Of a stretch of 64,000 nt of DNA, positions 675 to 38,250 are shown one piece after another. Below the pieces are notes generated by a model. It searched no databases. It saw only the letters and a list, made by a program, of their open reading frames with translations, and was not told the origin of the DNA. How positions within the stretch are numbered: position 1 is the first letter of the stretch; every line of letters starts with the position of its first letter. The position numbers and the translations under genes are program-made. Origin of the DNA: Candidatus Zambryskiibacteriota bacterium (GTDB lineage Bacteria; Patescibacteriota; Minisyncoccia; Phycocordibacterales; WO2-35-19); NCBI GenBank assembly GCA_963840745.1, contig CAWJAC010000006.1, positions 33,947-97,946 of the forward strand. The letters are read 5' to 3'.

Positions 675-2849
675 TTATTTTTTCTTTTGCCATCTGCCAC
701 GGCTGACTTTTTTGGGCTCGCGCAAGATTTCGAGAGCGCGGGGGAAAGTGATGGTGTAGACATCATCTGTTTTGAGCGAGCGAAAATCTTTTTGATGCAC
801 AATGTAAGGGCCGAAGCGGCCGATATTTGCTGAAATCATTTCGTGAGTTTCAGGATGTTTACCCAATTCTCTCGGCAAGCTCAAATATTTGACAGCTTCT
901 TCAAGTGTCACTGATTTTGGATCTTTGTCTTTGGGTATGCTAGACCGGCTCGGTTTTTTATTTTTTTCATCTTTAACCCCGAGCTGTACATAAGGCCCAA
1001 ACCTTCCATCCATCACAAATATCGGCAATCCTGTGGCGGGATCTGCACCGATCGTCTCAGCTTCTTTTATTTCACTGCCATCTATATTTCTCATACCTTT
1101 ACAGTCAGGAAATTTTTCGCAACTCAGAAACTTTCCTCCTCTGCCGAGTTTTATTATCATATCTGATCCACAGATTGGACACTTAATTTTGGGATCAGCA
1201 TCACCCAACGTAGTGAGCTTAGCGGTTTTTTCTTTTTCTTTAACATCTTTCAAAAAAGGTTTGTAAAATTCGCGCAGTGTCGGCTCATACTCCCTCTTGC
1301 CGTCGGCGATTTGGTCAAGCTCATCTTCCATTTCGGCAGTGAAAGTGTCGCTTATGTAATTCTCAAAATTATTTTCCAAAAATGTAGACACCACATCGCC
1401 GACATCTGTCGGCTTGAGAGTCCGGCCGTCTTTTTCTACATAACCTCGCTCTACGATAGTGCCGATGATGGAAGCATAAGTGGAGGGTCGGCCGATGCCT
1501 CTTTTCTCCAATTCTTTTATAAGCCCGGCTTCGCTGTATCTGTTTGGCGGCTCGGTTTGCTTTTTTTCATTATTTAAATTAAGTAAAGATAGAGGATCGT
1601 TTGCTTTAACTTTTGGCAACAAAACATCTTCACCTTTGGCTTGCGGATCTGCCAAAAGCCAACCGCTTTTTATAACGCGCGATCCGTTGGCGACGAAATC
1701 GGGAATCGTATCAACAGCTGCGATAATTTTAGTCCTCATTATCTCAGCATCCTTCATTTGAGAGGCGACGGCTCTCTGCCAAATGAGAGCATAAACCCTT
1801 TTTTGGTCATCGGTTGTGCCGCAATTTTCTTTATCGAAATGTGTTGGGCGAATAGCCTCGTGCGCTTCCTGCGCATTTTTAGATTTAGTTTTGTAAGTGC
1901 GGAATTGATGCATTTCTTCTCCGAACTTTTTTACCACTGCACCTTTGATTTGCCCCAAGGCCACAGACGCCATATTTAAGCTGTCGGTACGCATATAAGT
2001 AATATGTCCGGCTTCATAAAGTTTCTGGGCTGTCATCATTGTGCGTTTTGGTGAAAAGCCAAGCCGAGTGGAAGCCGCTTGTTGCAAAGTGGAAGTAGTA
2101 AATGGCGCATAAGGAGCCCTTTTGGCCGCCGTCTCTACCACGTCTTTGACAGACCATTTCCCGTTTTTTGCCACATTATAAATTTCATCTGCCTCTTTTT
2201 TTGTTTTTGGTTTTTCTTCGCACTCAACTATAATTTTTTCTTTTTTTTCTGTCTCAACATCTGCGCTTATTACAAAAAAAGTTTCCGGTTTAAAGGCTCT
2301 GATTTCTCTTTCTCTTTCCATTAATATTCTCAGAGCGGGGGATTGAACCCGGCCGGCCGAAAGCCCGTATCTAACTTTTTTCCAGATCAGTCCCAGACGA
2401 GATCATAACCCACCAAGTCGGTCCAAAACTCTCCTGGCCTCCTGAGCCTTTCTCAAATTTTGGTCAATGGCGCGAGGGTGTTTGAGCGCTTCTTCAATCG
2501 CTTCTTTGGTTATCTCATGATAAGTAACTCTTTGGGGTTTTATATCAGAATCTTTTTTTAAAATTTCGGCTAAGTGCCAGGCAATAGCTTCTCCTTCTCG
2601 ATCGGGGTCAGTGGCAAGCAGTATTTCGTCAGCCTTCTTGGCTAACTGTCTTATTTCTGCCACCACTCTTTCTTTGCCTTTTGAAATTTCATAATGGGGA
2701 ATAAAACCGCCTTCTATATCGATGGCCTTTTTGTTTGACTTGGGCAAATCGCGGACATGGCCAACACTGGCGACCACGGTATAATCGCTACCGACATACT
2801 TGCCGATAGTTTTGGCTTTGGCTGGTGATTCAACGATCAGTAATTTCAT
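675..2849 (-). CDS. topA: DNA topoisomerase I, interrupted by one in-frame TGA as assembled
   Basis: ORF 2403-2849 has the TOPRIM domain (MKLLIVESPAKAKTIGKY, DPDREGEAIAWH). ORF 675-2321 has the core plus C-terminal zinc ribbons (KCPICGS, FLSCEKFPDC). Both are in the same frame. The gap 2322-2402 is open and reads SRLGLIWKKVRYGLSAGRVQSPALRIL. Confidence 0.9.
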
Positions 2850-2892
2850 AATTGACTAAGCATAATGAAAAATAAAATAAAAAGCAAAAACC

Positions 2893-3780
2893 TCACCCCA
2901 AACGGATTTCACCGAGGGTTTCTTTGATAAGGCCTTTAAGTTCAAGGAGGGAAAGTAAAGTTTGGGTTTCGCCTATGGAAATTTGATGCTCCAAATTTGC
3001 CCGACGTAAAATTTCGTCGCGAGGAAGAGGCTCAATCAAAAGTTTTATAATAAACATCTCCTTTGGGGAGCAGTCAAAATATTTTTTCTCTTCATCTTCT
3101 TCACTTTCTTCGCCATTTTCTTTTTCCAAATGCAAAGCTTCCAAGATATCATAGCTATCGCGAATGGGTGTTGCGCCGAGACGAATGAGCATATGGGGCC
3201 CCTGACTTGTCGTATTGAATATACTTCCGGGAAGGGCAAGAACATCCCTGTTGTATTCAGTGGCAAGTCGCGCAGTAATTAAAGTGCCGGACTTTTTCTC
3301 AGCTTCTATTATAAGTGTGGCATGGCACATACCGGCCATAATTCTATTTCTTTGTGGGAAGCTCCATTGAGTCGCTTTAAATTCAGGATCAAATTCGTTC
3401 ATGATCATGCCGCCTTTTTCTACAATTTCTTGCGCTAGACGAGTATGAGATTGGGGATGCAAAACTTCTAGAGAAATTCCCGAGCCTGGCACTGAAATAG
3501 TAGGTAGATTATTTTTTAAAGCGGCTCTATGAGCAACGGAATCAATTCCAAGAGCTAGGCCGGAGATAATTGTTATGGGATAACCGCGCAAGCCGTCTAT
3601 GAAAGTTTCCACAGCTTCTTTGCCATAACTTGTATTTTTGCGAGCGCCGACTATGCAAAGAAGTTTTCTTGACCAATCAGCGATTTTGCCGGCATAAAAC
3701 AGTTGTTTTGGCAACTGATTTATTTCTTCGAGCAAAGGCGGCCAATCTTTTCTTGCTAGTTTTTTTATTTCATATTTCAT
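2893..3780 (-). CDS. dprA: DNA processing protein DprA/Smf
   Basis: 295 aa; SGLALGIDSVAHRAAL and the Rossmann-like DprA core. Confidence 0.85.
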   Translation of the reverse strand: MKYEIKKLARKDWPPLLEEINQLPKQLFYAGKIADWSRKLLCIVGARKNTSYGKEAVETFIDGLRGYPITIISGLALGIDSVAHRAALKNNLPTISVPGSGISLEVLHPQSHTRLAQEIVEKGGMIMNEFDPEFKATQWSFPQRNRIMAGMCHATLIIEAEKKSGTLITARLATEYNRDVLALPGSIFNTTSQGPHMLIRLGATPIRDSYDILEALHLEKENGEESEEDEEKKYFDCSPKEMFIIKLLIEPLPRDEILRRANLEHQISIGETQTLLSLLELKGLIKETLGEIRLG

Positions 3781-3827
3781 TTGTTTGTGGCACTCGCATT
3801 TATTGTAGCATTTGATATTATTTAAGC

Positions 3828-5099
3828 ATGCTAGATATTAAGTTTATAAGAGAAAACGCTGAGCTGGTGGCCGAAGGAGCCAAAAAGAAACACATAGAAT
3901 TTGATGTGCAAAAACTTATAGAAGTTGACGATAAGAGAAAAGCTATAAGTTTAAAACTTGATTTAAGAGAAGAGAGCAAGCAGAACGAAGCAAGCCAAAA
4001 AATTCCTCAGACGGTCAGACACCGGAAGAAAAAGAGCATTAATAAAAAAGATGCATGCCTTTTAAAGAAGAGATGCAAAAACTGGAAGAAGAGCTTAAGG
4101 GGGTGATGATTGAATGGCAAAAATTGATGGTATGCGGTGCCTAACATTCCGGATGTTTCGGTACCCGAAGGAAGTGAGGATAAAGATAACAAAGAGGTTA
4201 AAGTATGGGGAAGTATTCCAAAATTTGATTTTAAGCCCAAAAGCCATATTGAAATTATGCAAAATTTGGATATGGTTGATCTGGAAAGGGGGACAAAGGT
4301 TGCCGGGTTTAGGGGATATTTTTTGAAAAACGACGGAGTGCTTCTATCATTTGCCATTTGGCAGCATGCTCTCAGTCATTTTTTGAAAAAAGGTTTTACG
4401 CCTATGATAGTGCCATCGCTTGTCCGCCGAGAACCCTTTGTTGGTTCCGGATATTTGCCGCAAGGGGAAGAAGATTTATACAAAACTCAAGATGGAGAAT
4501 ATCTCTCCGGCACAGCGGAGGTGGCAACCATGGCTTTTCATATGGATGAAATTTTGGACAAAAAAAGTTTGCCTAAAAAGTTTTTATCATTTTCCCCGTG
4601 TTTTAGAAGAGAAGCGGGCGCATACAGTAAAGATGTTAAAGGTCTGATCAGGGTCCATGAATTTTATAAAGTGGAGCAAGTTATTTTGTGTGAGGCCAGC
4701 CACGAAGAATCAGTTAAATACCATGAATTTTTGCATCGCAACACAGAAGAATTCATCGAAACTCTCGGTATTCCTTATCACACAGTAATCAATTGTGCCG
4801 GTGATCTCGGTTTGGGCCAAGTTAAAAAATATGACATTGAATTATGGGTGCCTCTTGAAGAAAAGTATCGTGAGATAGGTTCAACATCATATTTTCATGA
4901 TTTTCAAACACGCAGATTGGGAATCCGTTATAAAGACGATGATGGTAAAATGAAATATACTCACTCTCTCAATAGTACGGCCATTCCAACACCACGCATA
5001 CTTGTGTCCTTAATTGAAAACTATCAACAGGCTGATGGCTCCATAATCATTCCGGAAGTTTTGAGGCCTTATATGGGTGGAAAAAGCAAAATAGAATAA
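3828..5099 (+). CDS. serS: Seryl-tRNA synthetase, at least two frame changes between about 3990 and 4137 as assembled
   Basis: The N-terminal arm (MLDIKFIRENAELV...) loses sense after about 3990. KEEMQKLEEELKGVMIEWQKLMV is readable in a second frame. The class II core is in ORF 4137-5099 (FSPCFRREAG, GLIRVHEF). Confidence 0.85.
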
Positions 5100-12919: not shown

Positions 12920-13093
12920 TCAGCGGCCGACTCTCCTTAGTGACAAGAGGAAAGCGAGAGTGAAGAACGCACCCATCAGTCCATACAATGGATAATGTGG
13001 TACGTCTCCGTCAATAAAAGCGTTTGATTTTAGCGTAGCCATCACGGCCATTATTGCTAAGACCAGAGACAAGACGGTTATCCTGGTTTTCAT
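12920..13093 (-). CDS. Small membrane protein (57 aa), below the ORF-track cutoff
   Basis: Own translation: MKTRITVLSLVLAIMAVMATLKSNAFIDGDVPHYPLYGLMGAFFTLAFLLSLRRVGR. GAGG lies 8 nt upstream of the ATG. Visibly GC-richer than its surroundings. Confidence 0.5.
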   Translation of the reverse strand: MKTRITVLSLVLAIMAVMATLKSNAFIDGDVPHYPLYGLMGAFFTLAFLLSLRRVGR

Positions 13094-13177
13094 ATGTCTT
13101 AACCTCTAATTTAGATAATAACCAAAATTATGGCTGTTGTACAGAATAAAATTCTTCTGCATTTATTGTCAAAAATT

Positions 13178-13576
13178 TTATATGTTTTCCAATATTACTT
13201 TTTCGTAATTTTTATTTATTCTATGATCTCCTTTGGGCACGATAATCATTTTTACATTTTTTTTGCATAATGGTTTGAATATTTTTTGCAAAAATTTTTC
13301 TTTTTCACCGATTATAAAAATTACTTGTTTAGCTTTGCATTTACCTAATGATTCAAATGGTGTCGGTGAACAAAGAATAAGTTTTTTTAGTTTTCTTTTC
13401 AGAGATATTTCAAGAGAAAAAACAGCTCCGAGAGAAAAACTAACAACCGTATCGCAGTTTTTTGATGATGTCGCTTTTCCCGTATTCCAATCAATATCAG
13501 CCACAATTAAATGCTTGGATAATGATTTATAATTTTCTTTTGTTTCTCCTAATCCTGGATAAAATATTGTTTTCAT
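13178..13576 (-). CDS. Small alpha/beta-hydrolase-like protein
   Basis: Start at MKTIFYPGLGE. Possible nucleophile elbow SFSLG and late GDH. The upstream part of ORF 13178-13672 overlaps the DUF397 gene and looks spurious. Confidence 0.45.
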   Translation of the reverse strand: MKTIFYPGLGETKENYKSLSKHLIVADIDWNTGKATSSKNCDTVVSFSLGAVFSLEISLKRKLKKLILCSPTPFESLGKCKAKQVIFIIGEKEKFLQKIFKPLCKKNVKMIIVPKGDHRINKNYEKVILENI

Positions 13577-13623
13577 AAATAAAAATAAATAGTGATGGGG
13601 AGCTCCGAGAACTCCCCATTGGA

Positions 13624-13824
13624 CTAGACATCGAACTCGCCCGCTTTGACGCCGCTGACGAACGCTTTCCACTCGGCTCGAGTGAAGAACGCCGTGGTTT
13701 TAGTCGGATCGTTGCTGTTGCGGACAGCTACGCCATTTGTCTTCACTGCCACAGCAACGCAGGTTTTGGGATTGTTTTTGGACCAAGACGAAACCCTGAA
13801 GTCCTGGTCTCGTACTTCAAACAT
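13624..13824 (-). CDS. DUF397 domain protein
   Basis: FRVSSWSKNNPKTCVAVAV...VAVRNSNDPTKTTAFFTRAEWKAFVSGVKAGEFD fits the DUF397 pattern typical of actinobacteria. GC-richer by eye. Strong SD (gaggaaaggtgg). Confidence 0.75.
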   Translation of the reverse strand: MFEVRDQDFRVSSWSKNNPKTCVAVAVKTNGVAVRNSNDPTKTTAFFTRAEWKAFVSGVKAGEFDV

Positions 13825-13954
13825 ATTTTTCCACCTTTCCTCAAGGAATGTCTAGCTAGAAACACTCCTATCCAAAGTACAAGTTGCCTTGTCTGATTTA
13901 AATATACGCCTTGGATTATTGTTGTCAATTTTTAAAATCAAAAGGTGAACAAGA

Positions 13955-14063
13955 CGAACAATTTTATTTTCAACAGCAAAAATACGGCTAAGATAATGGA
14001 TAAAATGGTAATCCACAGGAAAACATCAAAAATCGCTTGACAGAATTTTTAGTGCATATATAC
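13955..14063 (+). promoter_or_regulatory. Island module copy C (complete): conserved block plus TTGACA-16-TATACT promoter
   Basis: -35 at 14036-14041, -10 at 14058-14063. The upstream block aacagcaaaaatacggctaagataatggataaaatggtaatccaca is shared with copies B and D. Confidence 0.65.
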
Positions 14064-14107
14064 TATAGGAGTACTATTACGAAAAAGGAACCAAACGGTG
14101 TTAGTGC

Positions 14108-14631
14108 CTAAGGTCCCTTTTTCTTTTTATGCAGATATTCTATTTTTGATTTTATATCAACGGTGTCTAAATAATCAAAAAATCTTACGGTTAGGTGTTT
14201 ATACAAAGAAGAGGCTGATTTTTTATCGGGGAAAAGTATTTTAATAAATAAATTTTTACCCATCAAATAATCAACCAGTTTTCTATAATCTCCATCACCA
14301 GACACCAAAACAATTTTATCAAAATCTTTGTTATCAACAATATTTTTCATCACTTCAAAAACAATATCCGTATCAACATTTCCTTTTTTCTCCGTTATCA
14401 AATTTAAACTATGATATTTAAATATAATAACAAAACCAGCTTGTTGCAGGTTTTTGTATAAATCGTTTTGTGTTTCGGATGTAAACCCTAGAAAATAATA
14501 TGCTTCTCTGACTTTATACTTATCTTTCAAATAAATCCTAAATTTTTTAAAATCCACTTTCCAATTATTTTGAGTTGTTCCAAAGGTAGGTTTTGCCCGT
14601 CTATAAAGGCGAGATTATTTTCTTTTTTCAT
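14108..14631 (-). CDS. NYN/LabA-like domain protein, one frame change near 14575-14590
   Basis: ATG at 14631 gives MKKENNLAFIDGQNL. A frame switch then gives TFGTTQNNWKVDFKKFRIYL...GNVDTDIVFEV...IVLVSGDGDYRKLVDYL. Confidence 0.7.
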
Positions 14632-14761
14632 GATTTAAAGTATATCAAATTGTTGACAAAAATATTTTAAGTAATACCATTAAATACAGACAGAGTTTGT
14701 AAAATCTGTACTTTGGATAGGAGAGCCACTCAGAGCTTTCCTTGAGGAAAGGTGGAAAAGT

Positions 14762-14896
14762 ATGTATATACCATCAGGCGAAATTCGGGAACCCGATGTT
14801 CTCTGTACCGTCTATCGCGCCGGGGACGACGACTCGGTTTCTTCCGATGACTATGGTGAAGACAGCGATGCCGACAGCGGCGAACAGGATTGCTAA
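14762..14896 (+). CDS. Candidate 44-aa acidic peptide
   Basis: MYIPSGEIREPDVLCTVYRAGDDDSVSSDDYGEDSDADSGEQDC. It has the same leader, SD and ATG context as the DUF397 gene. Followed by the hairpin aagacccctc...gaggggtctt. An overlapping minus-strand ORF is an alternative reading. Confidence 0.35.
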   Translation: MYIPSGEIREPDVLCTVYRAGDDDSVSSDDYGEDSDADSGEQDC

Positions 14897-14919
14897 CAGC
14901 ACACCCAAGACCCCTCGCA

Positions 14920-15511
14920 TTTAGAGGGGTCTTAATTTGTCTCTAAAAAATTTTAGTATATTTTCGTAAGGTTCAGAAAGCTTGTAAGCCTTTTTGTAAT
15001 CTTCGCTGTATTTTATATCAGCAACTATTTTAAGCATATCAGGTTCATCTTCAAAAACTTTACGAAGTACGGCGAATACCAATATATGAGAGTTAACCGT
15101 ATCGCTATCTCCTTTTACAAGTAAAAAATCGTTATTTATTTTAAATAAATCTTTATTGGAAGCTAAAAGTCTGTGAGTAAGTTCGTGGGTGAGAAGTGAC
15201 TATAAAATTTTTAGGACCTTTGTGAGAACTAATTATTAATGGATTAGACATATCGCGATTAACTCCAGCAACTGCATAAACATTAATATCTTCCTTAAAG
15301 GACAAGTCCAGAGCAGAACAAATTCCATTTAGAACTTTCTCTTCATATTTAGCCCATATATCTTTATAAGCCTGTATCCTTTTCTCCATTTTTTCTTTAT
15401 CTGGAGGAACCCACCTTTCCATCCAGAACTTTTTACGTCAGGACTATTTTTTACATAAAAGTTAAAAAATGGTTCTAAAAGTTTGCCGTGTTGTATTATA
15501 ATCTTTACCAT
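14920..15511 (-). pseudogene. HExxH (HELTH) metallopeptidase-like gene with two frame changes
   Basis: MVKIIIQHGKLLEPFF... then FWMERWVPPDKEKMEKRIQ... then LTHELTHRLLASNKDL...KFFRDKLRPL, read in three frames. Confidence 0.5.
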
Positions 15512-15574
15512 CTTTATATTATAACAGAAATTTTTATATTTTAAAAATAGGGAACACGTTTTGAATAAAAAACA

Positions 15575-15650
15575 GAACAAAATTATTTTGATAGTCTAAA
15601 ATACGGCTAAGATAATGGATAAAATGGCAATCCACAAAAAGGGTTCAAAA
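15575..15650. repeat. Island module copy D, left part (separated from its promoter part by the IS)
   Basis: ctaaaatacggctaagataatggataaaatggcaatccacaaaaag. The promoter part resumes at 16673 (cttgacag...). Confidence 0.7.
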
Positions 15651-16672
15651 TGTTTTAGGCACACACATATGGCGGATTGATTAACTGATAATTTCTTAGG
15701 AATTCGTTGGGCGTTTTGCCGTTTAATCCGCAATGTTCTAGATCATTGTAATACATCATTCCACACTTTCATTTAATTTGCAAATCTGTTGAAGTTTTTG
15801 AATTTGTATTTTTCGTAGAATTTTTCTTGATCTTCCCTATGACTTCTCTCCACAGTTCCGTTTTGAGCCGGTTTTCCCGGATCAATCAGATAATGGAGAA
15901 TATTGTGTTTGGCAGAAAATTCATCAAGGGAATGGAGGTTTCTTGAAGAAAGATCGGATCGTCTGTATGACCGAAATATTAGTTTGTGAAAATCTGACCA
16001 TTGTCTGTTTTAATGGCTTGGATTTTGTATTTGAATATTCTCCATCACATTTTCAGAAAAACAACCGAATGAAAATTTGATTTCTTCGTCGAATATACTG
16101 CCAGATGTCTCCAGCGAGAAGCGGTATCAATAGCGGTATATTGGTAATATCTTTTGTTTTCAACACGTCCTGGAACGTATTTAACATCAATTTCGACTAA
16201 TTCTCCCGGCTTGTCTCTAGTGCTTTGATGTATTTGTATGAAATCTTTCTTGACTCGGTATTTGTGTACCAAATTTTCTTTTTCAAAATCTTGCCGATAG
16301 TTCGTAGGTGAATTTAAAGTTCCTTCTTTTTTTAATTGCCAGTGTATTTTGAGAGCACACTTTTTGGTTTTCTTTCTGATCAAATGACTCTTTCCTTGAT
16401 CCATATCGGAGTCTCTCTGGTCTGAGTCTTGGGTTCAGTTGATTTGGGTTCCAAGTGACCAATCTCCATGCTTCTTGCACTTAGCCAGCCATCTCTCGAG
16501 ACTGCGTTTGCTGTGTGGACAGACCTTTACCACATCCACTAATCTTAACTGTCTGTATGCGATGGGGAGCACCCATCTCAATCTCTCTTCTTTGATTGTT
16601 TTTGCCATATGTATTGCCATTGCCCCATTCTAGGGGAAAACCGCCAAAAGAGTGTACACATTACCTAAAACA
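15651..16672 (-). mobile_element. IS481-like insertion sequence, decayed
   Basis: Terminal inverted repeats TGTTTTAGG at 15651-15659 and its reverse complement at 16664-16672. HTH fragment in ORF 16435-16620. rve core DVKYVPG...YYQYTAIDTASRW in ORF 16045-16404. Further fragments down to about 15660 carry stops and frame changes. Confidence 0.75.
15660..16620 (-). pseudogene. IS481-family DDE transposase, multiple frameshifts and stops
   Basis: As above. The C-terminal part (KTDNGQ..., YNDLEHCGLNGKTP) is readable only across broken frames. Confidence 0.7.
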
Positions 16673-16762: not shown

Positions 16763-17674
16763 ATGACCACGACGACTCGAATTTTCGTGTTGTGCATGGT
16801 GGCCGTTGTGGTCACCGTGAGTGCGGTCGCGCAAGCACCGCAAAACTTCAATCGGCCGACGGCCGACGAACTCTTCAACCGCGCCGGCCTCACGGGTCCG
16901 CGCCACATCGCGTCTGCCATAGCGTCTGTCATGGCCGAAGTTAATGTCGCTGGGCAACCGCAGTTGGTGGAGCCCATTGCTGTTCTTCGCTCGCCGGGTA
17001 ACATCGTGTCGACGTCAACGGCACCGATTAACATTGACGTGAAGAAGGACTATGGGAGGTCAGTGTGGGTAGCTGGGGAGGTATACCGCAACGGCCAAAA
17101 GATCGGCGAAGCGGCATACGCGAACAAGAAGTACGCGCAGACCGCTTTCGGGCCCGGGTATTACACTTCCCTTACCGGCGGCGGCATCATTCCCTTTGAC
17201 GATGTGTCTACCGGCAACGCTGGGGACTGCACCATCGTGATCGTCCAGCTTTTTGACAGCGAGAACGGCGGCGCGCCCATTGGGCCGCCTATGACTACCA
17301 CGTTCTGGAATCGCGTCAAGCCCGTGTCTGCTGTTGCCCCGATGGTCGTGAACTCCGCCAGCATTTTGGCGGACGGCGCTTCCATGCAGGTGAACGGCAA
17401 CGGTTTTCCGACCGGCGGTCAGGCGATCATCGTCGAAACCGGGGATCCGGAGTGGGACAGCGGTTTTGTCGCCACCACCTCGGCCGACGGCAAGACCCTG
17501 CGTTTCGCAATCCCGACCGGCAAAACCGGCAACTTCCTCTATCCGAGGATGTGGGCGGCCCAGTCCAATTGGACTGTAGTCGTGACCACCCTGGACGGCA
17601 CGAGTGTAACCGCCCCCAACCTGCTCCAGGTTCAGGGCAACAGTCGCGACCTGACAGTCGCCCAAGTTCCATAA
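16763..17674 (+). CDS. Secreted protein with signal peptide and C-terminal IPT/TIG-like beta domain
   Basis: MTTTTRIFVLCMVAVVVTVSAVAQAP signal. Visibly GC-rich. Followed by a hairpin terminator (aaaacctcga...tcgaggtttttt). Confidence 0.7.
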   Translation: MTTTTRIFVLCMVAVVVTVSAVAQAPQNFNRPTADELFNRAGLTGPRHIASAIASVMAEVNVAGQPQLVEPIAVLRSPGNIVSTSTAPINIDVKKDYGRSVWVAGEVYRNGQKIGEAAYANKKYAQTAFGPGYYTSLTGGGIIPFDDVSTGNAGDCTIVIVQLFDSENGGAPIGPPMTTTFWNRVKPVSAVAPMVVNSASILADGASMQVNGNGFPTGGQAIIVETGDPEWDSGFVATTSADGKTLRFAIPTGKTGNFLYPRMWAAQSNWTVVVTTLDGTSVTAPNLLQVQGNSRDLTVAQVP

Positions 17675-17835
17675 CTTTCTCGCGCCAAACGGCGCTCGCT
17701 AACCAAAACCTCGATAGTATGGATTGTCTACGGACAGTTCATACCGTCGAGGTTTTTTCTTTATCCACTTTTTTTGTTGACCTCCAACCCGAACACTTAT
17801 ATAATATTTGTATATTTAATTTTATAAAATAATTT

Positions 17836-18369
17836 ATGGAAAATATTGAAAATAATCCATATCCTACTTCTTCCACTTCTCCTCGCAAAACAAACAAACG
17901 ACTAATTATTCTTGTTTGCATTTTGATAATTGCGGCTGCGGGCTGGGCTTATTATGCCTATAAAATCAAAAGTAAAAATAATGCAAGCCAACATCTGCCT
18001 CAAACTTTCTCGTTTACTGCCGAAACCAAACTTGCTTCTTCCCAGCTTCCCTCCGGATTTCCCAAAGATTTTCCGGCAAATAACGAAGTGGCATACGTTC
18101 TTTATAACTACAATGGCGAAACTAACGACAAGCTTGCGGGCGTGAGGGAATTTACCACCACAAGGTCGGTGCAGGAAGCTTACCAATTTTACCATAGTTA
18201 TTTTTCACAATTGGGATGGACAATGGACCCCTCCCAGCAACTGTCCACTAACCACATAGATACCTATGCGACGAATGGTTCATTTTACGCTTCCATCAAA
18301 ATCGACTCTTATCCCCAAGCTTCCAAACATGTGAAGGCACTGGTATTAATAGTCATTACTTCCGATTAA
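17836..18369 (+). CDS. Membrane-anchored hypothetical protein
   Basis: 177 aa; one TM segment (LIILVCILIIAAAGWAYYAY) after a polar N-terminus. Confidence 0.55.
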   Translation: MENIENNPYPTSSTSPRKTNKRLIILVCILIIAAAGWAYYAYKIKSKNNASQHLPQTFSFTAETKLASSQLPSGFPKDFPANNEVAYVLYNYNGETNDKLAGVREFTTTRSVQEAYQFYHSYFSQLGWTMDPSQQLSTNHIDTYATNGSFYASIKIDSYPQASKHVKALVLIVITSD

Positions 18370-18387
18370 AAGTAACTTATTTTTGCC

Positions 18388-20872
18388 ATGAAAAAATTTC
18401 AGTGGTTTCGCATAGCTGTTGGTTTTAGCCTATTTTTTAGCCTATTTTTATTTTTTGGCGCCAAGAGCCTGCATGCTGACAGCATTTGCAGCAACCCCAC
18501 TTGCAATACTGATTATTATTGCGACAACGGTACTTGCGTATGCAGCAGTCAATCGTTGTGCGGCAACAATTGCGATAACGGCAACGGCGTTTTATGCTCC
18601 GACGGCACTTGCGTTTCTGATGTTGCGGATTGTGGAGCCGGTCATGGGTGTCCGCAAGAAGCGCCGTGCTATGATAGCGGTAGCGGTACTTGTTGCGCTG
18701 CTGATCCCAACGGTTCCATTGGCTGTAGTCTAGGGTGCGGAGGAAGCACTGGAGGCGGTACGTGCACCGGCGATTCGGATTGCACCGGCGGCGCGCGTTG
18801 CGTAAACGGGGGTTGTACCACTGCTTGTACTGTGACGTGCAACAACAATTCGGATTGCGGGACGGATGAGTGGTGTGATGATCCGGGCGCTTGCGGAGCC
18901 TATTGCGTGTCTAATTTTGAACACAGCGTATGTGAAGGCTCTTCCTGTAGGACATATTCAGGCCCCGGTGACATGGACTGCGGTTCCGATGCCGATTGCG
19001 CTCCCAGTCCAACTTGCGTCAACGACGGCACTTGCCACAGCGGGGAAACCTGCAATCTTTGCCCCGTTGATTGCGGCGCCTGCATTGTTAACGGAGCCTG
19101 CCAAAATCCTCCCAACGGCAACATCTATGTTACGGCTCCGACCGGGACTTTATGCAGTAGCGGCATCGCTAGCCCTTCCACCCTTAGCGGCAGCGGCCCC
19201 TGGTCTTGGCAATGTACCAGCCCTAACGGTGGCACCACTGCTTCCTGTTCCGCCTCCGTTCCCAATCAGCCCACGCCCACATTACCGCTACCCCGGACTT
19301 CCTGCCAAGCACAGGAGGCGCCACCCAAGTTTACGCGGCTTCTACCAATGCCAATAATTGTTATGTGACTTCCAGCCCCACTGTGGACGCGGGGTTCTGG
19401 ACAACGCTTGGGCCATACACATACAATCCTTACATAAACATCTCCGATGTAACCCAAACTACCGTTTTTACCGAAACCTGCACCTATAACAGCCCGGCTT
19501 ATCCCTACTACATTCTTGGCCCCGTGACCAGTTCCGTGACGGTCAGTGTCGGTACAATCATTGGAACTTTAACCCCCTGCGAAACCGATATGTGTGCCAT
19601 GACTTATTATGGCGACGGGACAAATCCGGCCAACGCCACCTATCTTTACTATCCGTCCCATGATCAAATGATTTCCAGTTATTGTATTCCAGTATACGAC
19701 AATTGCAGCAGCCCGGCTTACAACATCAACGGCACGAATTATTGGATTAGGGAAGGCGGCAAAGACACCACGACTTGTTTAAACCTGCAAACGCCGGTTC
19801 CGGCTTGCGTGGTTCCTCCTCCGACCGGTCTTACCGGCACTTGTCCTTCTCCGAACACCACGGCCAACTTGAGTTGGACTGCTCCTTCGGGCTACAATAC
19901 TTTTTATGTTCGCTTAAATTCCACTGAAATGGCGGTTATACATGGCCGATTCCGAGCGGAATATCCACGTCAGTCACTGGTACCACATGGAATCCTCCAA
20001 CCACCGCGGGTCAAACTTACTCTTGGTGGGTGAGTACCGCCGGCCCAAGTGGAACTTACAGCAGCGATGCTGTTGGAAGTATCAGTTGTATCACTATCCC
20101 CACCACTCCCACCGGCCTCTCGGTCACTCCCAGCACCTGCGGCAACAACTGGCTCAACATTTCTTGGAACGCTTCTGCCGGAGCCACTTCATATCAGGTC
20201 TATCGCGATGGAGGACCTTTTCCTGTCTACAACGGATCAAGTCTGGCTTTCTCTGACACCGGACTTGCTTTAGGATCAAATCATTCATATACAGTTAAAG
20301 CTACAAACGCGCAAGGTTCTTCATCTTTAAGTGCTTCGGTGTCTAATACAGTAGCGTCTGCCTGTGCGGTTGCCACTGCCAATATAAGTGCTGATTCAAA
20401 TAGTATTCCATACAATACCTCTACCACTTTGCATTGGTCATACTCCAATGCCACTTCCTGCACCATTACTCCACCGGCTACTATCGGAGGTTATCCAAGC
20501 GGTTCGGGCAGTGTTTCCACCGGCAATTTAACAGTTAGCAGAACGTACACCATTTCTTGCAACCCCGGGAATACAAATTCCAGCGCTACAATTAATGTTA
20601 CAGGCGGGTCAAATGATTTATGTATTACAAAGTCAGGGCAAGGGACGGTTACTCTTAATCCTGTGGGAACACCGGATTCAACTTGTTGGAGTTATGGTTC
20701 AGGCGCTACAGTTCAACTTACTGAAAATCCTGGATCAGGCAGGGTATTTACCGGGTGGGGAGGTGACTGTGCTTCCTTTGCTAAAAGTGTAAGCTGTAAT
20801 TTAATAATGAATACCTCCAAAAGTGTTATTGCCAACTTCATGGTAATAGATCCTAATTACAAGGAGTTTTAA
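18388..20872 (+). CDS. Large secreted cysteine-rich protein with FN3-like and InlB B-repeat-like C-terminal domains; two frame changes as assembled
   Basis: Signal peptide, then dense Cys repeats (CDNGTCVC, CTGDSDCTGGARCVNGGC). FN3-like segment LSVTPSTCGNNWLNISWNASAGATSYQVYRDG. C-terminal GRVFTGWGGDC...VIANF. Frame switches near 19260-19285 and 19926-19930 (gaaatgg, an A-run). Confidence 0.7.
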
Positions 20873-32831: not shown

Positions 32832-32906
32832 TCCGCGGTGGCGCAGCGGTAGCGCAGTCGCCTGTTAAGCGATTGGTCGTTGGTTCGAATCCAACCCGCG
32901 GAGCCA
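32832..32906 (+). tRNA. tRNA-Asn (anticodon GUU), CCA encoded
   Basis: Hand-folded cloverleaf: acceptor tccgcgg/ccgcgga, D stem gcgc/gcgc, anticodon stem gtcgc/gcgat with loop cuGUUaa, T arm gttgg-ttcgaat-ccaac, discriminator g, cca. Confidence 0.9.
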
Positions 32907-33032
32907 GCCACTTTATCAAAAGCAAGAGTTAATTCAGGGAATTTAATTTAAATCAAAATTAATTTGCAACAATAGAAATATTATGGTTAAATCACATCAG
33001 GTCTGATCTTTGACCTAGAAAGGATGTGGTGT

Positions 33033-34406
33033 ATGAGACTCAAACAGAGTCCGTTTTTGCATATTGTCCCTGTTGGGGAGGGTTATGTTGCCCTTTACAA
33101 CAGCCTAAGTCTTGAGGTTGCATTCCTTGATGAAGGTTTTATTCAGAAACACAGCAGAGGACAGTTCTTTGAACCGTCTGATACTGATTCTGAGCAAACT
33201 CTCGAACAACTCCAAAATCTAGGATTTCTTATCGAAGAAACATCCGATGGTAATGAGTTGTACAAGCAGTACCAAACCGCACTTGGCAAACCAGCGATCA
33301 ATATTCTTTACCTTCTGCTCTCTGATGCTTGTAACATTAGGTGCCGGTATTGTTATTTCTTGGCTCCGATGCCAATTGGTTATCGACCGTCTTTGATGAC
33401 AAAAGAAATAGCAATTAAAGCACTTGATTTGTTCGCTCGGTGCGTACGGCGAAGTGTTGAGAAGGGGCACAAGGAACAACATATCGTGCTTTATGGCGGA
33501 GAACCAACCACGAATAAAAAAGTGTTGGTTGAAGCACTTCGATACATCGATGTGCTAAAAAGAAAAGACGAGCTCCTAAAAGAGATCGGGGTTACTCTAA
33601 ATACCAACGGGCTCCTTCTTGATAAAGCTATTCTCGAACAGTGCAAGATTTCAGGAGCAACTGTGGCGATTTCCATTGACGGCCCACAGGAAATTCACGA
33701 CAAAATGCGTGTGTTCGCATCCGGTGCTGGCACTTTCGATCAGGTTATTCGTGGATATCGGTTTGCGAAAGAAAAAGGAGTTAAGACCGGCGTTTGCGTG
33801 ACTGTAGACCACCACAATTTGTTCAAGATGAAGGAGATTGTGAAATGGCTATCAATCGAGCTTGGGGCCAAGGGATTGGGTTTTAATATCCTCATCGACA
33901 ACAAGTGCCAACATCCAATGGGTGACGCTGTAAACTACTCCGAGGTTATTGCGGAACAACTCATCGAGAGTTTTAAGGTGGCTCGTGAACTCGGTGTTTA
34001 TGAAGATCGAATTATGCGTCGTGTGAAAAATTTTCTCGAAAAGACACCTGTTCTGAGCGATTGCGGAGCTTGCGGTCTTCAAATTGTTGTGAGCCCAGAC
34101 GGCAAGATTGGCGTATGCCAAGCTTTCTGTGGGAGTAAGGAGTTTTTTGTCACAGAACAATTTGAGACGTTTGAGCCCGAGAGCCACCCATTTTGGAAAC
34201 AGTGGCGAGGGCGATCACCTTTCAGTAATAAGACTTGCAGGGAGTGCATTGCTCTTGGAAACTGTGGCGGTGGTTGTCCATACAACGCATATCAAACAAA
34301 TGGGTCAATTAATGCTCTTGATGAACGGTTCTGTACTCATGCGAAAGCCACCACCTTGTTTCTGATTAAGGATTTGTGGGAAAAACAGACAGAGGAAAAG
34401 GTGTAA
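33033..34406 (+). CDS. Radical SAM / SPASM-domain peptide maturase (SCIFF-maturase-like)
   Basis: LLLSDACNIRCRYCYF (CX3CX2C). C-terminal auxiliary-cluster cysteines CGACGL...GVCQAFCG...CRECIALGNCGGGCPYNAY. 457 aa from MRLKQ, with an AAGGA SD. Confidence 0.8.
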   Translation: MRLKQSPFLHIVPVGEGYVALYNSLSLEVAFLDEGFIQKHSRGQFFEPSDTDSEQTLEQLQNLGFLIEETSDGNELYKQYQTALGKPAINILYLLLSDACNIRCRYCYFLAPMPIGYRPSLMTKEIAIKALDLFARCVRRSVEKGHKEQHIVLYGGEPTTNKKVLVEALRYIDVLKRKDELLKEIGVTLNTNGLLLDKAILEQCKISGATVAISIDGPQEIHDKMRVFASGAGTFDQVIRGYRFAKEKGVKTGVCVTVDHHNLFKMKEIVKWLSIELGAKGLGFNILIDNKCQHPMGDAVNYSEVIAEQLIESFKVARELGVYEDRIMRRVKNFLEKTPVLSDCGACGLQIVVSPDGKIGVCQAFCGSKEFFVTEQFETFEPESHPFWKQWRGRSPFSNKTCRECIALGNCGGGCPYNAYQTNGSINALDERFCTHAKATTLFLIKDLWEKQTEEKV

Positions 34407-34448
34407 TGAATTAGCGGGAATGGGGGAGGTTGTTGCCTTCCCCCTTTT

Positions 34449-35147
34449 TTATTTAACGATTGATAATGTTCTCAAAATAAAATCTTTTGCGTTTTTAGAT
34501 TTTTTAAATTCTTTCTCAAATTGATTGAGATATTTCTTATGATCAGGATACGGCCTGACGTTTTTTTTATCAATAATCTTTCCATACAAAGAAGAACGCA
34601 AAACAATCACATTAAAAATCTCGGACAAAGCCCATAACTGGTCCTCGGTTAAATTTTGGGTCTCCTTTTTGATTTTTTTGTTAACAAAATCATAGAAAAT
34701 GAAGTGGAGTAATTCATGAGCTATCGTGTGAATTGTATCTGGTACAGACTTCTTATAATAAAATTGAAAAGTCTTCGACTCTAGAAATCTTGGGTTACAG
34801 TTAATAATCGAAGCATAGGCAACATACATACCGTCTGGAAACCTGTAGCCATTAAAATATTGTTCCGTTATGCGGACATAATCACTCTCAATTTTTTGCC
34901 AATTATGTTTTACCAATTGAACTTTTTTTTGAATTGGCTCCTGGTTCGTTTTGTAATAATTTGTAAAATATTTCTTTATAATTGCTTTTTTTATAGTAGT
35001 ATTTTCCGCGAGAGCCGTCTTTTTTAAATTTGGGTGTGTTTTGATTATACCTGCTCCAAAGTCTACTCCACCACCTTTTATATTAAGAAATTGGTCAGTC
35101 ATCAATTCATCCAATCCTTTATTAATATTAAATCTTAGCTTTTTCAT
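34449..35147 (-). CDS. HExxH-motif protein (putative metallopeptidase), unknown family
   Basis: 232 aa; TIHTIAHELLHFIFYDF. Immediately downstream of the Cys-rich peptide gene on the same strand. Confidence 0.5.
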   Translation of the reverse strand: MKKLRFNINKGLDELMTDQFLNIKGGGVDFGAGIIKTHPNLKKTALAENTTIKKAIIKKYFTNYYKTNQEPIQKKVQLVKHNWQKIESDYVRITEQYFNGYRFPDGMYVAYASIINCNPRFLESKTFQFYYKKSVPDTIHTIAHELLHFIFYDFVNKKIKKETQNLTEDQLWALSEIFNVIVLRSSLYGKIIDKKNVRPYPDHKKYLNQFEKEFKKSKNAKDFILRTLSIVK

Positions 35148-35211
35148 AAATATTTATATAAAAAATTTGAGCAGTTTTCGGACATGCTCAGGTCTTTGGT
35201 GGTTCGCGGTG

Positions 35212-35355
35212 TTACTTACAAGGCGTGCAGCGACACGAGTTACAAGCGGTGCAGTCGCATGGTTTGGAATTGGCGGCATTCTGCCAATCGATCTGGCCAG
35301 CGATTCTCGCCTTTGCTTTTAGGTCAGGAATTAGGAGGGTTCTTAGATTTTTCAT
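35212..35355 (-). CDS. Six-cysteine RiPP precursor candidate (SCIFF/ranthipeptide-like), 47 aa
   Basis: MKNLRTLLIPDLKAKARIAGQIDWQNAANSKPCDCTACNSCRCTPCK. AGGAG lies 8 nt upstream of ATG 35355. TTGCAT-17-TATATT upstream. The longer ORF-track version (to 35451) has no SD. Confidence 0.65.
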   Translation of the reverse strand: MKNLRTLLIPDLKAKARIAGQIDWQNAANSKPCDCTACNSCRCTPCK

Positions 35356-35515
35356 ACCCTCTCTCCTTTCTAGATCCTGATAAACAGGTCTACTGGAAAA
35401 TATAACAGAATTATCTGATATATGCAAATATTTAAACTCAAATAATCCCATTTATTCAATTAATACATGTTCTAACTTCGTTCGGCATGCGGAGCAAATT
35501 TTTATAAGTTTTTAA

Positions 35516-35743: not shown

Positions 35744-35954
35744 AATTTTATTTTTTTAACTAATAATATACTAATAATATAATGTAACACACAATAAGCC
35801 GGTGTGGTGTGTGTTTAATTACATACACCAAGTTTTATCATCTATCAGACATAACTAGCTTGGGACAAGCTTCTTTTATCTATCAACAGTTTATACACTT
35901 AATATACAGATAAGTATAGTTGACTATATAAAATATAGGGTGCTATACTCTCCG

Positions 35955-36514
35955 ATAGACAGATCGATCAGGTACTAAAAGACTGTATTGATTAGGGGGC
36001 GTGAGGGAATATCTCGCTCCTAAGGTTAAAAGCCAATAATCAGTGGAGAAGAAATTCTCCTTCAAAGGGTTCATCGTAAGGTGAATCCGAAACACGAGCA
36101 GTCCTGCGTATCATATTTGACTAACCGAAAAATTATTTCTGTAGGGTTAATCTCCAAATCCAAAGAGATTCTTGCAGAAATAAATGTCCCTGAAACGCGA
36201 GTAAGGATAAATCGCGTTTGGTTTAAAGCCAAAAGCTTAAAACCAACAGAAGACTAGGAAGCCAAAAGTATCCTCATCCTGGGAGCCGAAGGCAAAAACC
36301 CACTTGCCGATGGTACAAGGGATATCTTTGGGCGTTCAACAGAACGACCAACGGATGCGAAAGTATCAGGAGGTTGGGGAAACCCACCAAAATGTAGCCA
36401 AACAGTTAACATCTGAATGGTCAACATTAGGTGGAATAACCCACCCCCTGATCTGAGCGAGAAGTCTCGAAAGAACAAAGCCCCCAAGGAGTAAAAATCC
36501 TGGGGACTTTTTTG
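35955..36514 (+). ncRNA. Unclassified structured RNA of about 560 nt
   Basis: TTGACT(35920-35925)-18-TATACT(35944-35949) promoter. No credible ORF. Many local stems, including GNRA hairpins GGAGAA-GAAA-TTCTCC (36045-36060) and TGGG-GAAA-CCCA (36375-36386). 5'/3' closing helix gatcagg (35966-35972) / cctgatc (36447-36453). Terminator hairpin plus T-run at 36481-36513. Confidence 0.6.
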
Positions 36515-36606
36515 TTAAAATTGAAATGAATACTACGTATTATTGACAAAAACCAAAAAATGATTATAGTCAAGGGCTCTGGCATTTAGAATGCCCGAGT
36601 TTTTAT

Positions 36607-37608
36607 ATGAAAAATAAACTTATTAAATTGCTTGAAAAACCTAAAATAGTTATTCCTGCAGTTTTCATTATTGCAGTTATCATCGGAGCGATATCATATA
36701 GGTTTATCGGCCAAGCTCCGGTTGCAATGCTTTCTAATGATGTAAATCTTGCTTCTTCATCAGTTGGCTCCACAGACAATTCAGTCGATTTGGCTTTCTC
36801 CAAAACCGGACGTTTGGGAGCAATAGGAGTAAGTGTCGGCAGTCTGGTAAAGAAAGGTGATATTCTCGCATCGCTTGATGCGGGTGATTCTCTAGGTGCT
36901 GTTAATCAGGCAAAGGGCGCGCTTGAGCTTGCCAAAGCTCAGTATGCTTCAATGAATGTTCAATATGCAAATACCAAAACACAACAAGATGTGCTTGTTG
37001 CAAATGCTTATCGGACGCTTCTGTCAAGCAATCTTGTTGCAGTTTCGAAAGACAATTCAGTTAATGTTGATAGCAGTCAGGCCCCGCAAATTAGCGGCAC
37101 CTATACATGCAGTAAAGAAGGCAGTTATGAAATAGACCAGTATGCTTCTGGGGTTTCATCCGGCTATTCATTTACTTTAAGTGGTCTTGAAAATGGGACT
37201 GGCAATGTAGTATATAATACTCCTCAACCGCTTGGATCATGCGGGTTATTTATTCAATTTCCGGCCGGATATTCTTATGGATTCGTACGATGGATAATTA
37301 ATATACCAAACACAAGATCGCCGGGCTATGTCGCAAATAAAAATGCCTATGATTTAGCAGTAGCAACTCGTGATCAGGTTTTAAAACAGTTTGAAGCTAA
37401 TCTCGGTGAAAACGGATCATATAATGCTAACATCGCCCAAGCGGCAGTTGATTCCGCGCAGGGTGCGTACGAAACGGCTCTGGCTGCATATCGCAATAAT
37501 CTTATTGTGGCCCCCATAGATGGAGTAGTAACCTTTGTTGACTCTGATCTTAAAATCGGGCAATCGGTTAATGCAAACAAAACCGTCATAACTATCGTTA
37601 AGAAATGA
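36607..37608 (+). CDS. HlyD/membrane-fusion-family periplasmic adaptor-like protein
   Basis: N-terminal TM segment, lipoyl-like GDILASLD, coiled-coil region, C-terminal APIDGVVTFVD. Confidence 0.6.
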   Translation: MKNKLIKLLEKPKIVIPAVFIIAVIIGAISYRFIGQAPVAMLSNDVNLASSSVGSTDNSVDLAFSKTGRLGAIGVSVGSLVKKGDILASLDAGDSLGAVNQAKGALELAKAQYASMNVQYANTKTQQDVLVANAYRTLLSSNLVAVSKDNSVNVDSSQAPQISGTYTCSKEGSYEIDQYASGVSSGYSFTLSGLENGTGNVVYNTPQPLGSCGLFIQFPAGYSYGFVRWIINIPNTRSPGYVANKNAYDLAVATRDQVLKQFEANLGENGSYNANIAQAAVDSAQGAYETALAAYRNNLIVAPIDGVVTFVDSDLKIGQSVNANKTVITIVKK

Positions 37609-38250
37609 TTATGGAAGATGATAAATCAAAAAAAAGTTTCCTCAGAAAACCTTGGGTACAAAGTCTTGCGGGTATTGTTTTAATAGTGGTCGCTCTTTTT
37701 GGGATCCTCTATTGGAAATCAACTTCATCTTATGTCGCTATCGACATGTCCCAAATTTCAGCTCCGATTATTGCTGTTGGCCCCGAATCAGAGGGGGTGC
37801 TTTCTGAAGTGTATGTGAAGCCGGGTGACACGGTTGTCTCCGATGAGCCTCTCGCGCGGGTTGGCGGAGAAACTCTTTCAGCTAAAACTTCCGGTGATTA
37901 TTATCAGTACGGAAAATATGCCTGGCCAAATTTTTATGCCGGGAAGCCCGGTGGTGTCCATGATTGACCCAAATCAACTCCGAGTGGTGGGAAAAATTGA
38001 CGAGAACAAAGGTTTATCCAGTATCAAAATCGGAGACCCGGCAACGTTTACGGTGGATGCGTTTGGCGGGACGGAATTTACCGGTATTGTCGATGAAATC
38101 AGTCCCACCTCGGACCAGTCAAGCGTGGTGTTCAGCATTTCCGATAAGCGCGAGATTAAACAGTTTGACTTAAAAGTTCGTTACGACATTGCGCTCCATC
38201 CTGAATTTAAAAACGGCATGTCCGCAAAGTTAAGGATTTATGCAAGATAA
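37605..38250 (+). CDS. HlyD/EmrA-family adaptor, one frame change near 37880-37890
   Basis: ORF 37605-37967 (TM segment, VKPGDTVVSDEPLARV) continues as VIISTENMPGQIF...VVGKIDENKG...FTVDAFGG in the frame of ORF 37825-38250. Confidence 0.65.

Follow-up and report, generated by a model that had tools for sequence, protein, structure and literature searches.

The window analysed here is a stretch of 64,000 nucleotides (nt) from a Candidatus Zambryskiibacteriota bacterium (contig CAWJAC010000006.1, positions 33,947 to 97,946), and it raises the question of what lies in an intergenic gap of 860 nt (35744-36606). The left neighbour of this gap is a minus-strand open reading frame (ORF) of 75 amino acids (aa), and the right neighbour is an operon encoding membrane-fusion and MFS efflux proteins. 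An earlier note on this DNA had proposed that the unit inside the gap (35920-36513, plus strand) is an orphan, independently transcribed and structured RNA of about 560 nt. The promoter, the terminator and the stable fold predicted from the sequence bear out this proposal. We consider it very likely that the unit is a real, structured and independent non-coding RNA (ncRNA) of a family outside Rfam. Our best reading is that it represents a new family of large, ornate RNAs acting in trans, with a narrow distribution among Paceibacteria-like bacteria of the candidate phyla radiation (CPR).

The earlier note had named checks of its proposal, among them a scan against all Rfam models, a search for homologues and a test for covariation, and these three came out in its favour. 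Two homologues were found by searches that relied on exact seeds only. The first one (L011) is carried by a JGI metagenome contig and was recovered by using a one-frame translation of the RNA as a pseudo-protein query (tblastn, E = 3e-15). It shares 77% identity with the window over 659 nt (blastn). This homology begins at about position 35874, 45 nt 5' of the -35 hexamer, runs through the whole unit and ends at the terminator. The second homologue (L048) is located on CAIOTC010000020.1, from an uncultured lake bacterium represented in GTDB by a metagenome-assembled genome, whose MurF is closest to Paceibacterota. This copy is more divergent than L011. It was found by screening 185,579 GTDB species representatives for two invariant loops, with the pattern CAAATCCAAAG-N(28-52)-TAAGGATAAA. 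The pattern matched 28 places, one of which is a true homologue (L048; nhmmer, E = 2e-91), and a single one of the 185,579 representatives carries both loops. Homology across the three loci is confined to the RNA gene, no flanking gene being shared. The gene is a self-contained cassette that moves between variable regions without synteny.

The plus strand of the window RNA folds with a minimum free energy of -190.8 kcal/mol, compared to -138.8 +/- 6.4 kcal/mol in dinucleotide shuffles (z = -8.2), and none of 100 shuffles was as stable. The two homologues also fold with low z scores (-6.2 and -5.0; for each, all 100 shuffles were less stable), whereas z is only -4.8 for the minus strand of the window RNA. 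Moreover, several invariant G-U pairs (columns 349/379, 352/376 and 209/233 among them) would be A-C mismatches on the opposite strand. These pairs fix the strand as plus, in agreement with the weaker minus-strand score. A two-sequence RNAalifold prediction contains 151 pairs, 18 of them compensatory and none broken. In the three-way alignment, 27 of the 151 pairs are changed on both sides, compared to 11.2 +/- 2.4 in column shuffles (none of 500 reaches 27), and only 0-4 double-changed pairs are obtained when the partners are slid by 1-3 columns. In addition, 94.8% of the pair cells are canonical, a percentage that is inflated by the derivation of the structure from the same alignment, the double-change counts being much less affected. 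Most of the "unpaired" cells come from L048, in which MAFFT misaligned the divergent hairpins P6 and P18. Separate folding of each homologue gives the same hairpins out of different sequence. The bases that do not vary lie mainly in junctions and in hairpin or internal loops. Compensatory substitutions thus show that the fold, of about 20 helices in five or six domains, is under purifying selection across three Patescibacteria-type genomes.

We then considered the signals that delimit the unit. A sigma-70-type promoter (35920-35949, plus strand) is composed of TTGACT (35920-35925), an 18-nt spacer and TATACT (35944-35949), with a TG before the -10 hexamer (extended promoter). This promoter, on which the earlier note had based the start of the unit, scores 10/12 against the consensus. 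In such an A+T-rich region, a consensus match alone is not above chance (6 promoter-like sites observed vs. 7.0 +/- 2.9 expected), but the promoter is conserved in L011: the -35 hexamer is identical there, the -10 region and the 45 nt upstream are also kept, and the spacer has a 3-nt deletion. A conserved box of 19 nt, TATCAACAGTTTATACACT (35881-35899, plus strand), lies 20 nt 5' of the -35 hexamer. This box, identical in L011 (2857-2875) and absent in L048, may serve as an UP element or bind a regulator. With a start placed 7 nt past the -10 hexamer and an end at the U-run of the terminator, the predicted transcript is about 558 nt long (35956-36513, plus strand). The intrinsic terminator (36477-36513, plus strand) consists of a bulged G+C stem (36481-36506) and, after it, a run of six U (36508-36513), in agreement with the hairpin and T-run previously placed at 36481-36513. 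A simple terminator scan missed it because the stem is bulged, while the same scan called the equivalent of L048. The stem (helix 21) is conserved, with 3 compensatory pairs.

The efflux operon has a promoter of its own 3' of this terminator, as had been claimed, although at 36543-36570 and not at 36545-36572 (a shift of 2 nt). It scores 11/12. In a related locus (L010), whose membrane-fusion protein is 81% identical, the RNA is missing but the promoter of the efflux operon is retained, nothing else being conserved upstream. The RNA and the efflux operon are therefore separate transcription units. More generally, the unit displays what is expected from a stand-alone bacterial ncRNA, i.e. its own promoter, an intrinsic terminator, no ORF and a covarying structure.

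The architecture of the RNA can be described from its 5' end, all the elements being on the plus strand. The 5' domain (35972-36111) is made of three helices (35972-75/36108-11, 35981-86/36098-103 and 35987-94/36037-44) that enclose four hairpins. In this domain (helices 1-6), six pairs are changed on both sides and the separate folds agree. The P4a hairpin (35995-36021) exposes the invariant loop GAGGGAAUAUCUC at 36003-15 and is followed by the small P4b hairpin (36024-36034; GGUUAAAAGCC). P5 (36045-36060) is capped by a GAAA tetraloop (GGAGAA-GAAA-UUCUCC in the window, GGGAA-GAAA-UUCCC in L048). This GNRA hairpin had been read by eye from the window, as had the stems of P9 and P13, and all three are confirmed and covary. 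P6 (36068-36088) keeps its pairing with different bases: GGGUUCAUC/GGUGAAUCC in the window, GGUUCAC/GUGAACC in L011 and GUUUCGC/GCGGGAC in L048. Next comes P7 (36133-36183), a stem of 14 bp plus 5 bp capped by an invariant C-loop of 10 nt, CAAAUCCAAA (36155-36164), identical in the three copies; its helices (9-10) are 100% paired, with three pairs changed on both sides. P9 (36193-36219; helix 11) has the stem AAACGCGA/UCGCGUUU, first noticed as aacgcga/tcgcgtt at 36194-36218 and replaced by GAAUGC/GCAUUU in L048, and its invariant D-loop is GUAAGGAUAAA (36201-36211). P10 (36220-36244) is a variable hairpin, 14 nt shorter in L011 and L048, and carries the second copy of a hairpin module, GGUUnAAAGCCA. 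The two copies of this module, GGTTAAAAGCCAA and GGTTTAAAGCCAA (36024-36036 and 36220-36232), are both kept in L011 and L048 with small changes, and this duplicated module may represent a duplicated binding site.

The central part of the molecule continues with a three-tier hairpin, P11-P12-P13 (36276-36323; helices 14-15), which contains the invariant stretches CCUGGGAGCCGAAGG (36278-92) and CGAUGGUA (36308-15). The stem of P13 reads ggcaa/ttgcc in the window (36290-36307), GGUGA/UCACC in L011 and GGCAAG/CUUGUC in L048. In the P14-P15 hairpin (36324-36356), helix 16 is 100% paired and four of its pairs are changed on both sides, the apex of P15 being CGUUC/GAACG, CACC/GGUG or CGCA/UGCG depending on the copy. 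The 3' domain (36357-36461; helices 17-20) then comprises P16, an A-rich 5x5 internal loop (GAAAC/AAUAA), P17 and the three-tier apex P18, with CGGAUGCGAAAGUAUCAGG and GGAAUAACCCACCCCCUGAUCUGAGCGAG as invariant stretches. In P16, AUCAGG.GG.UGGG pairs with CCCA.CC.CCUGAU, the outer AUCAGG/CCUGAU being invariant. P17 is formed by CCACC/GGUGG, and its pair at columns 451/499 changes from AU to GU and GC; the second GNRA hairpin that had been proposed at 36375-36386 is accordingly better read as two long-range helices. In P18 of L048, tiers of 5, 4 and 3/4 bp are kept while nearly all the bases are different. In the window and in L011, the terminator is preceded by a small hairpin, CGAG-AAGU-CUCG (36458-36469), which gives way in L048 to an insert that is longer by about 32 nt. 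The earlier note had also suggested that GAUCAGG (35966-72) pairs with CCUGAUC (36447-53) and closes a domain of about 490 nt. This helix does not hold beyond the window, because its 5' strand is not conserved (AGCCAGA in L011, GGAACAG in L048) and because the invariant CCUGAU pairs with the invariant AUCAGG (36365-36370) in P16. A pairing of 4 bp between invariant CAGA and UCUG may close the molecule instead.

Further copies of the RNA were sought in several collections. An earlier GTDB scan, run with six conserved seeds of peptide style, produced 274 seed matches; tblastn confirmed none of them, and the masked query may have rejected distant ones. Seven different probes detected no true homologue in the viral contigs of IMG/VR, and blastn returned nothing relevant from the phage (INPHARED) and plasmid collections. 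Two IMG/VR contigs from high-GC phages match the 22-base CTGGGAGCCGAAGG..CGATGGTA (L078, 2160-2218; L079, 8742-8801), and these matches were rejected as chance: the one in L078 belongs to what can be read as protein-coding sequence (DWEPK...), and the two contigs do not otherwise resemble the RNA. A covariance model of the 3' domain (R1), run over 223 kb of the window and CPR loci, retrieved only the three known copies; this model failed to re-align P18 of L048. Homologues of the downstream membrane-fusion protein (66-84% identity) led to nine further loci, in which MarR or other genes abut the operon; the RNA was absent from all nine, and also from seven relatives of L048 identified through MurF (47-54% identity). 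In one of the latter loci (L074), a gene-free stretch of 1.7 kb proved to be a serine-recombinase element that had escaped gene calling.

The absence of any family signature, reported in the earlier note, was then examined with Rfam 15. Among 4227 models, cmscan detected only a tRNA-Asn (at 32832) in the whole window, and ARAGORN likewise found this tRNA and no tmRNA. A permissive search (E <= 10) over 871 nt gave only sub-threshold matches, the best with an E value of 0.63. These were mostly on the minus strand, over the terminator and the next promoter, the rest being matches to short miRNA, snoRNA and leader models. At this threshold, the window RNA matches none of the models for RNase P RNA, tmRNA, signal recognition particle (SRP) RNA, 6S, ROOL, GOLLD, OLE, raiA, HEARO, introns or riboswitches. 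L011 and L048 (inputs of 600-870 nt) do not match any family at E <= 10 either. The absence of a known family signature thus extends to all three copies.

Could the region instead encode a protein, either by small ORFs or by an antisense ORF, or be the decaying remnant of a mobile element? Two copies indeed have an antisense ORF, of 77 aa in the window and of 75 aa in L011, and the cassette occupies different genomic places. However, this ORF is absent in L048 and was not called by the gene callers, and 77 aa is the longest ORF found in any frame of the region, as the earlier note had indicated when it saw no credible ORF over about 560 nt. Indels between homologues measure 1, 2, 3, 4 and 14 nt, i.e. 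not only multiples of three, and stops occur in every frame. A six-frame pseudo-protein search against a database of 5.8 billion proteins gave no match, and a HMMER search of 1.84 billion representatives with the antisense ORF gave a single weak match that looks repeat-driven. The unit is single-copy within the window and no terminal inverted or direct repeats surround it. The compensatory changes imply a selection on RNA pairing, and a coding or remnant origin is hardly credible. The idea that a housekeeping RNA (RNase P RNA, tmRNA, SRP RNA or 6S RNA) has here taken an aberrant form in CPR bacteria deserves scarcely more weight. CPR genomes often carry divergent core components, and two short strings of the RNA (ACAGAAC and GGGGAAACCCAC) recall RNase P RNA, itself a multi-domain molecule of a few hundred nt with GNRA loops. 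Nevertheless, ACAGAAC lies in the apex of P15, a variable site that differs in both homologues, the P4 pseudoknot strands GGAAAGUCC and ACAGAAnCCGGCUUA (CR-I and CR-V) are absent, and no copy matches RF00010, RF00011 or RF00373 at the permissive threshold. A gene whose two loops occur in one GTDB representative out of 185,579, and which near relatives lack at the syntenic site, has a distribution far too sparse for an essential RNA. We consider it very unlikely, too, that the unit is a cis-regulatory element, whether a 5' leader or riboswitch of the downstream transporter or the 3' untranslated region of an upstream gene. A co-oriented transporter does lie downstream in two of the three loci (the membrane-fusion/MFS operon of the window and an MFS gene in L011), and the terminator could act as an expression platform, but these two transporters are not homologous. 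A role as leader is excluded because the gene downstream of L048, murF, is convergent and leaves nothing to regulate. Likewise, the RNA is missing upstream of the efflux operon in the nine relatives and is therefore neither part of this operon nor its leader, the promoter of the operon lying past the terminator and being retained in an RNA-free relative. As for a 3' untranslated region, the upstream genes are divergent from the RNA in the window and L011, and terminated in L048.

Two other explanations, each improbable in our view, concern the kind of RNA. The unit might be a protein-sequestering sponge such as CsrB/RsmZ or 6S, in which repeated GGA loops titrate an RNA-binding protein. Candidate GGA motifs exist (GGGAAUA, AAGGAU, CGGAUG and GGAAUAA), several of them invariant and unpaired, the GGUUnAAAGCCA hairpin module is duplicated, and the D-loop GUAAGGAUAAA appears to resemble the CsrA SELEX (systematic evolution of ligands by exponential enrichment) consensus, RUACARGGAUGU. 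Known sponge RNAs, however, are strings of simple hairpins, whereas this RNA has covarying long-range helices and multi-tier domains, with only two or three GGA motifs in hairpin loops. The CsrB, RsmY/Z and 6S models give no match, and no csrA-like gene was noticed in the window, where no systematic search for one was made. Alternatively, the RNA might be a very divergent member of the ROOL/GOLLD lineage, whose nanocage-forming RNAs are associated with phages and tRNAs; it would then be homologous and not merely analogous to them. GOLLD RNAs have a conserved 3' half and are associated with phage lysis. ROOL RNAs have an average length of 581 nt (PMC5737381) and are reported from three unnamed phyla, phages and prophages (PMC5737381; 10.1101/2024.12.08.627333). 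Both ROOL and GOLLD are often found near tRNAs and in prophages (PMC5737381; 10.1101/2024.12.08.627333), and the env-38 member of GOLLD, a family usually exceeding 800 nt, lies downstream of a Met-tRNA (10.1101/2024.12.08.627333). The window RNA resembles ROOL (RF03087) by its length of about 558 nt and by its many helices (21 in all) and multistem junctions, although size and fold alone do not establish membership. Like ROOL, it is a stand-alone orphan without an obligatory neighbour protein gene, occurs sporadically in variable regions and has tRNA genes nearby in all three loci, as is also expected from an ornate orphan RNA of the GOLLD type (RF01998); in L048, a mobile-element-type gene is close. 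Neither covariance model matches any of the three copies at E <= 10, however, and there is no sequence similarity to ROOL. Moreover, the hosts are CPR/Patescibacteria, the window offers no prophage context, the seven probes revealed no IMG/VR copy, and about 560 nt is short for a GOLLD RNA.

A resemblance of another kind links the RNA to OLE (RF01071), which is also a structured RNA of about 600 nt with conserved nucleotides in loops and junctions and which is a trans-acting scaffold of a ribonucleoprotein (RNP) or of a dimer. Two of the three copies adjoin membrane-transporter genes. OLE occurs in Bacillota (extremophiles and anaerobes) and works with OapA, OapB and OapC; in contrast, oapA and its partner genes are not among the neighbours of our RNA, the hosts are CPR bacteria, and the OLE model gives no match. 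The raiA motif RNA, another orphan structured ncRNA, is abundant in Firmicutes and Actinobacteria and was once taken for a cis-regulatory element. It measures about 200 nt, belongs to other phyla, and its model matches no copy. No report of large structured ncRNAs in CPR bacteria was found in the literature searched. The RNA described here belongs to a known kind, the large ornate orphan bacterial RNAs, and constitutes within this kind a new family, in a phylum-level group for which none is described.

The host and the surroundings of the gene were also considered. The window is part of a bacterial chromosome with topA, clpB, priA, mrdA, lysS and proS, and the best named relatives of the neighbouring proteins belong to Paceibacteria/Parcubacteria, which agrees with the CPR host proposed earlier. 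By contrast, the position between a RiPP-like locus (RiPP: ribosomally synthesised and post-translationally modified peptide) and efflux genes, which the earlier note had called unexplained, is not a property of the RNA: the other two copies lie in unrelated neighbourhoods and close relatives of the efflux operon lack the RNA. L011 is flanked by an ice-binding-like gene upstream and by its MFS gene downstream, while L048 follows the gene of a 213-aa HExxH protein and that gene's own terminator. The window encodes a HExxH protein too (232 aa), and a shared neighbour was considered and rejected, as the two proteins are not detectably homologous. No prophage or phage gene was found around the window copy.

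In all three loci, a tRNA gene is located 0.8-3 kb upstream of the RNA and on the same strand: tRNA-Asn(GTT) in the window (32832-32906, plus strand; 3.05 kb upstream), found by both Rfam cmscan and ARAGORN, tRNA-Gln(TTG) in L011 (2.4 kb upstream) and tRNA-Glu(CTC) in L048 (0.8 kb upstream). Assuming about one tRNA per 20 kb, the rough probability that chance produces such an arrangement is about 0.03 when side and strand are left free, and about 4e-4 when the tRNA has to be upstream on the strand of the RNA. Accessory-looking genes separate the tRNA from the RNA each time: a ranthipeptide-type RiPP locus in the window, Dabb and ice-binding-like genes in L011, and the HExxH protein in L048. 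The RiPP locus of the window is of the ranthipeptide/SCIFF type (33024-35451). It comprises a radical SAM/SPASM maturase (33024-34406; TIGR04136-like, E = 3.5e-84), the 232-aa HExxH protein (34449-35147, minus strand) and a candidate Cys-rich precursor ending in ...CDCTACNSCRCTPCK (ORF 35212-35451, minus strand). In L048 (3812-7154), the gene just past the tRNA-Glu(CTC) encodes a 920-aa coupling ATPase resembling TraD/VirD4 (phrog_5156, E = 7e-75), and this copy therefore lies at the edge of a mobile-element-like region. In the relatives of L048, the tRNA-Glu directly follows murF, and in L074 it is succeeded by the serine-recombinase element. This site is therefore an insertion hotspot. The element of L074 (2579-4290) encodes a large serine recombinase of 519 aa (2579-4138, minus strand) that the gene caller had missed; it is bounded by inverted repeats of about 110 bp (~2610-2720 and ~4180-4290) and inserted directly after the tRNA-Glu(CTC), downstream of murF.

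Two further observations concern the window outside the RNA gene. The second membrane-fusion gene of the efflux operon (37605-38250) is split into ORFs of 120 and 141 aa by a +1 frameshift near 37890, while its relatives encode a single protein of 212 aa; it is either a pseudogene or the product of an assembly error. A low-GC stretch (13000-16100; 0.32-0.35) contains few long ORFs, with none of at least 110 aa between 14557 and 16045, and adjoins a high-GC one (17000-20000; 0.49-0.53). It may be an island or hold further non-coding genes. No Rfam match was found between 13000 and 20000.

Returning to the RNA, we propose that it would act in trans by its three-dimensional fold and not by pairing with a nearby mRNA. 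The invariant loops GGGAAUA, CAAAUCCAAA, GUAAGGAUAAA and GGAAUAACCC would be its contact surfaces, and the partners could be a protein encoded elsewhere, other copies of the RNA, or both, by analogy with OLE, ROOL and GOLLD. In the published work, OLE forms a dimer or RNP, ROOL an octamer and GOLLD a 14-mer, and cryo-electron microscopy (cryo-EM) revealed RNA-only assemblies for three orphan RNA classes (10.1101/2024.12.08.627333). On balance, we lean towards an independent trans-acting ncRNA gene of about 558 nt that founds a family outside Rfam and works through its fold and the contacts of its invariant loops. Its sparse occurrence leads us to infer an accessory function of a narrow CPR clade and not a housekeeping one.

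Several points weigh against this reading. The comparison involves three sequences, two of which are about 80% identical, so that the covariation statistics are strong for local helices and weak for the long-range closure and for pseudoknots; when pseudoknots were sought as runs complementary in all three sequences, the invariant candidates were too numerous to be interpreted. The apparent narrow distribution may partly reflect the exact-seed searches, and not a true rarity. Concerning transcription, both ends of the RNA are deduced from the sequence, the promoter spacer of L011 is 15 or 17 nt long, and the promoter of L048 is weak or unclear, with only a -10-like TATATT. The tRNA proximity is a post-hoc observation on three loci. 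Finally, no partner protein, oligomerisation signal or catalytic motif was identified, and a mechanism by scaffolding or self-assembly, an analogy and not a result, is only a tentative suggestion.

To our knowledge, very few bacterial RNAs combine a length above 500 nt with a complex conserved fold, i.e. rRNAs, group II introns, RNase P, tmRNA, OLE, ROOL, GOLLD and a handful more. Each large bacterial RNA that is understood performs sophisticated biochemistry. It is conceivable, though we put it forward with reserve, that the present RNA is the first large ornate class specific to CPR/Patescibacteria, unrelated to ROOL, GOLLD and OLE, with a defined tertiary and perhaps quaternary or catalytic architecture and an accessory role, for instance in mobile-element conflict, tRNA-linked processes or host-episymbiont interaction. 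The three sequences, and a secondary structure backed by covariation, already make it tractable for model expansion, in vitro folding and cryo-EM. Moreover, its recurring place downstream of tRNA genes offers a testable connection with the tRNA proximity of ROOL and GOLLD, itself unexplained. The ncRNA repertoire of CPR bacteria is essentially unexplored, and such a class, if true, would extend the short list of large RNAs to a vast region of the bacterial tree that has hardly been studied.

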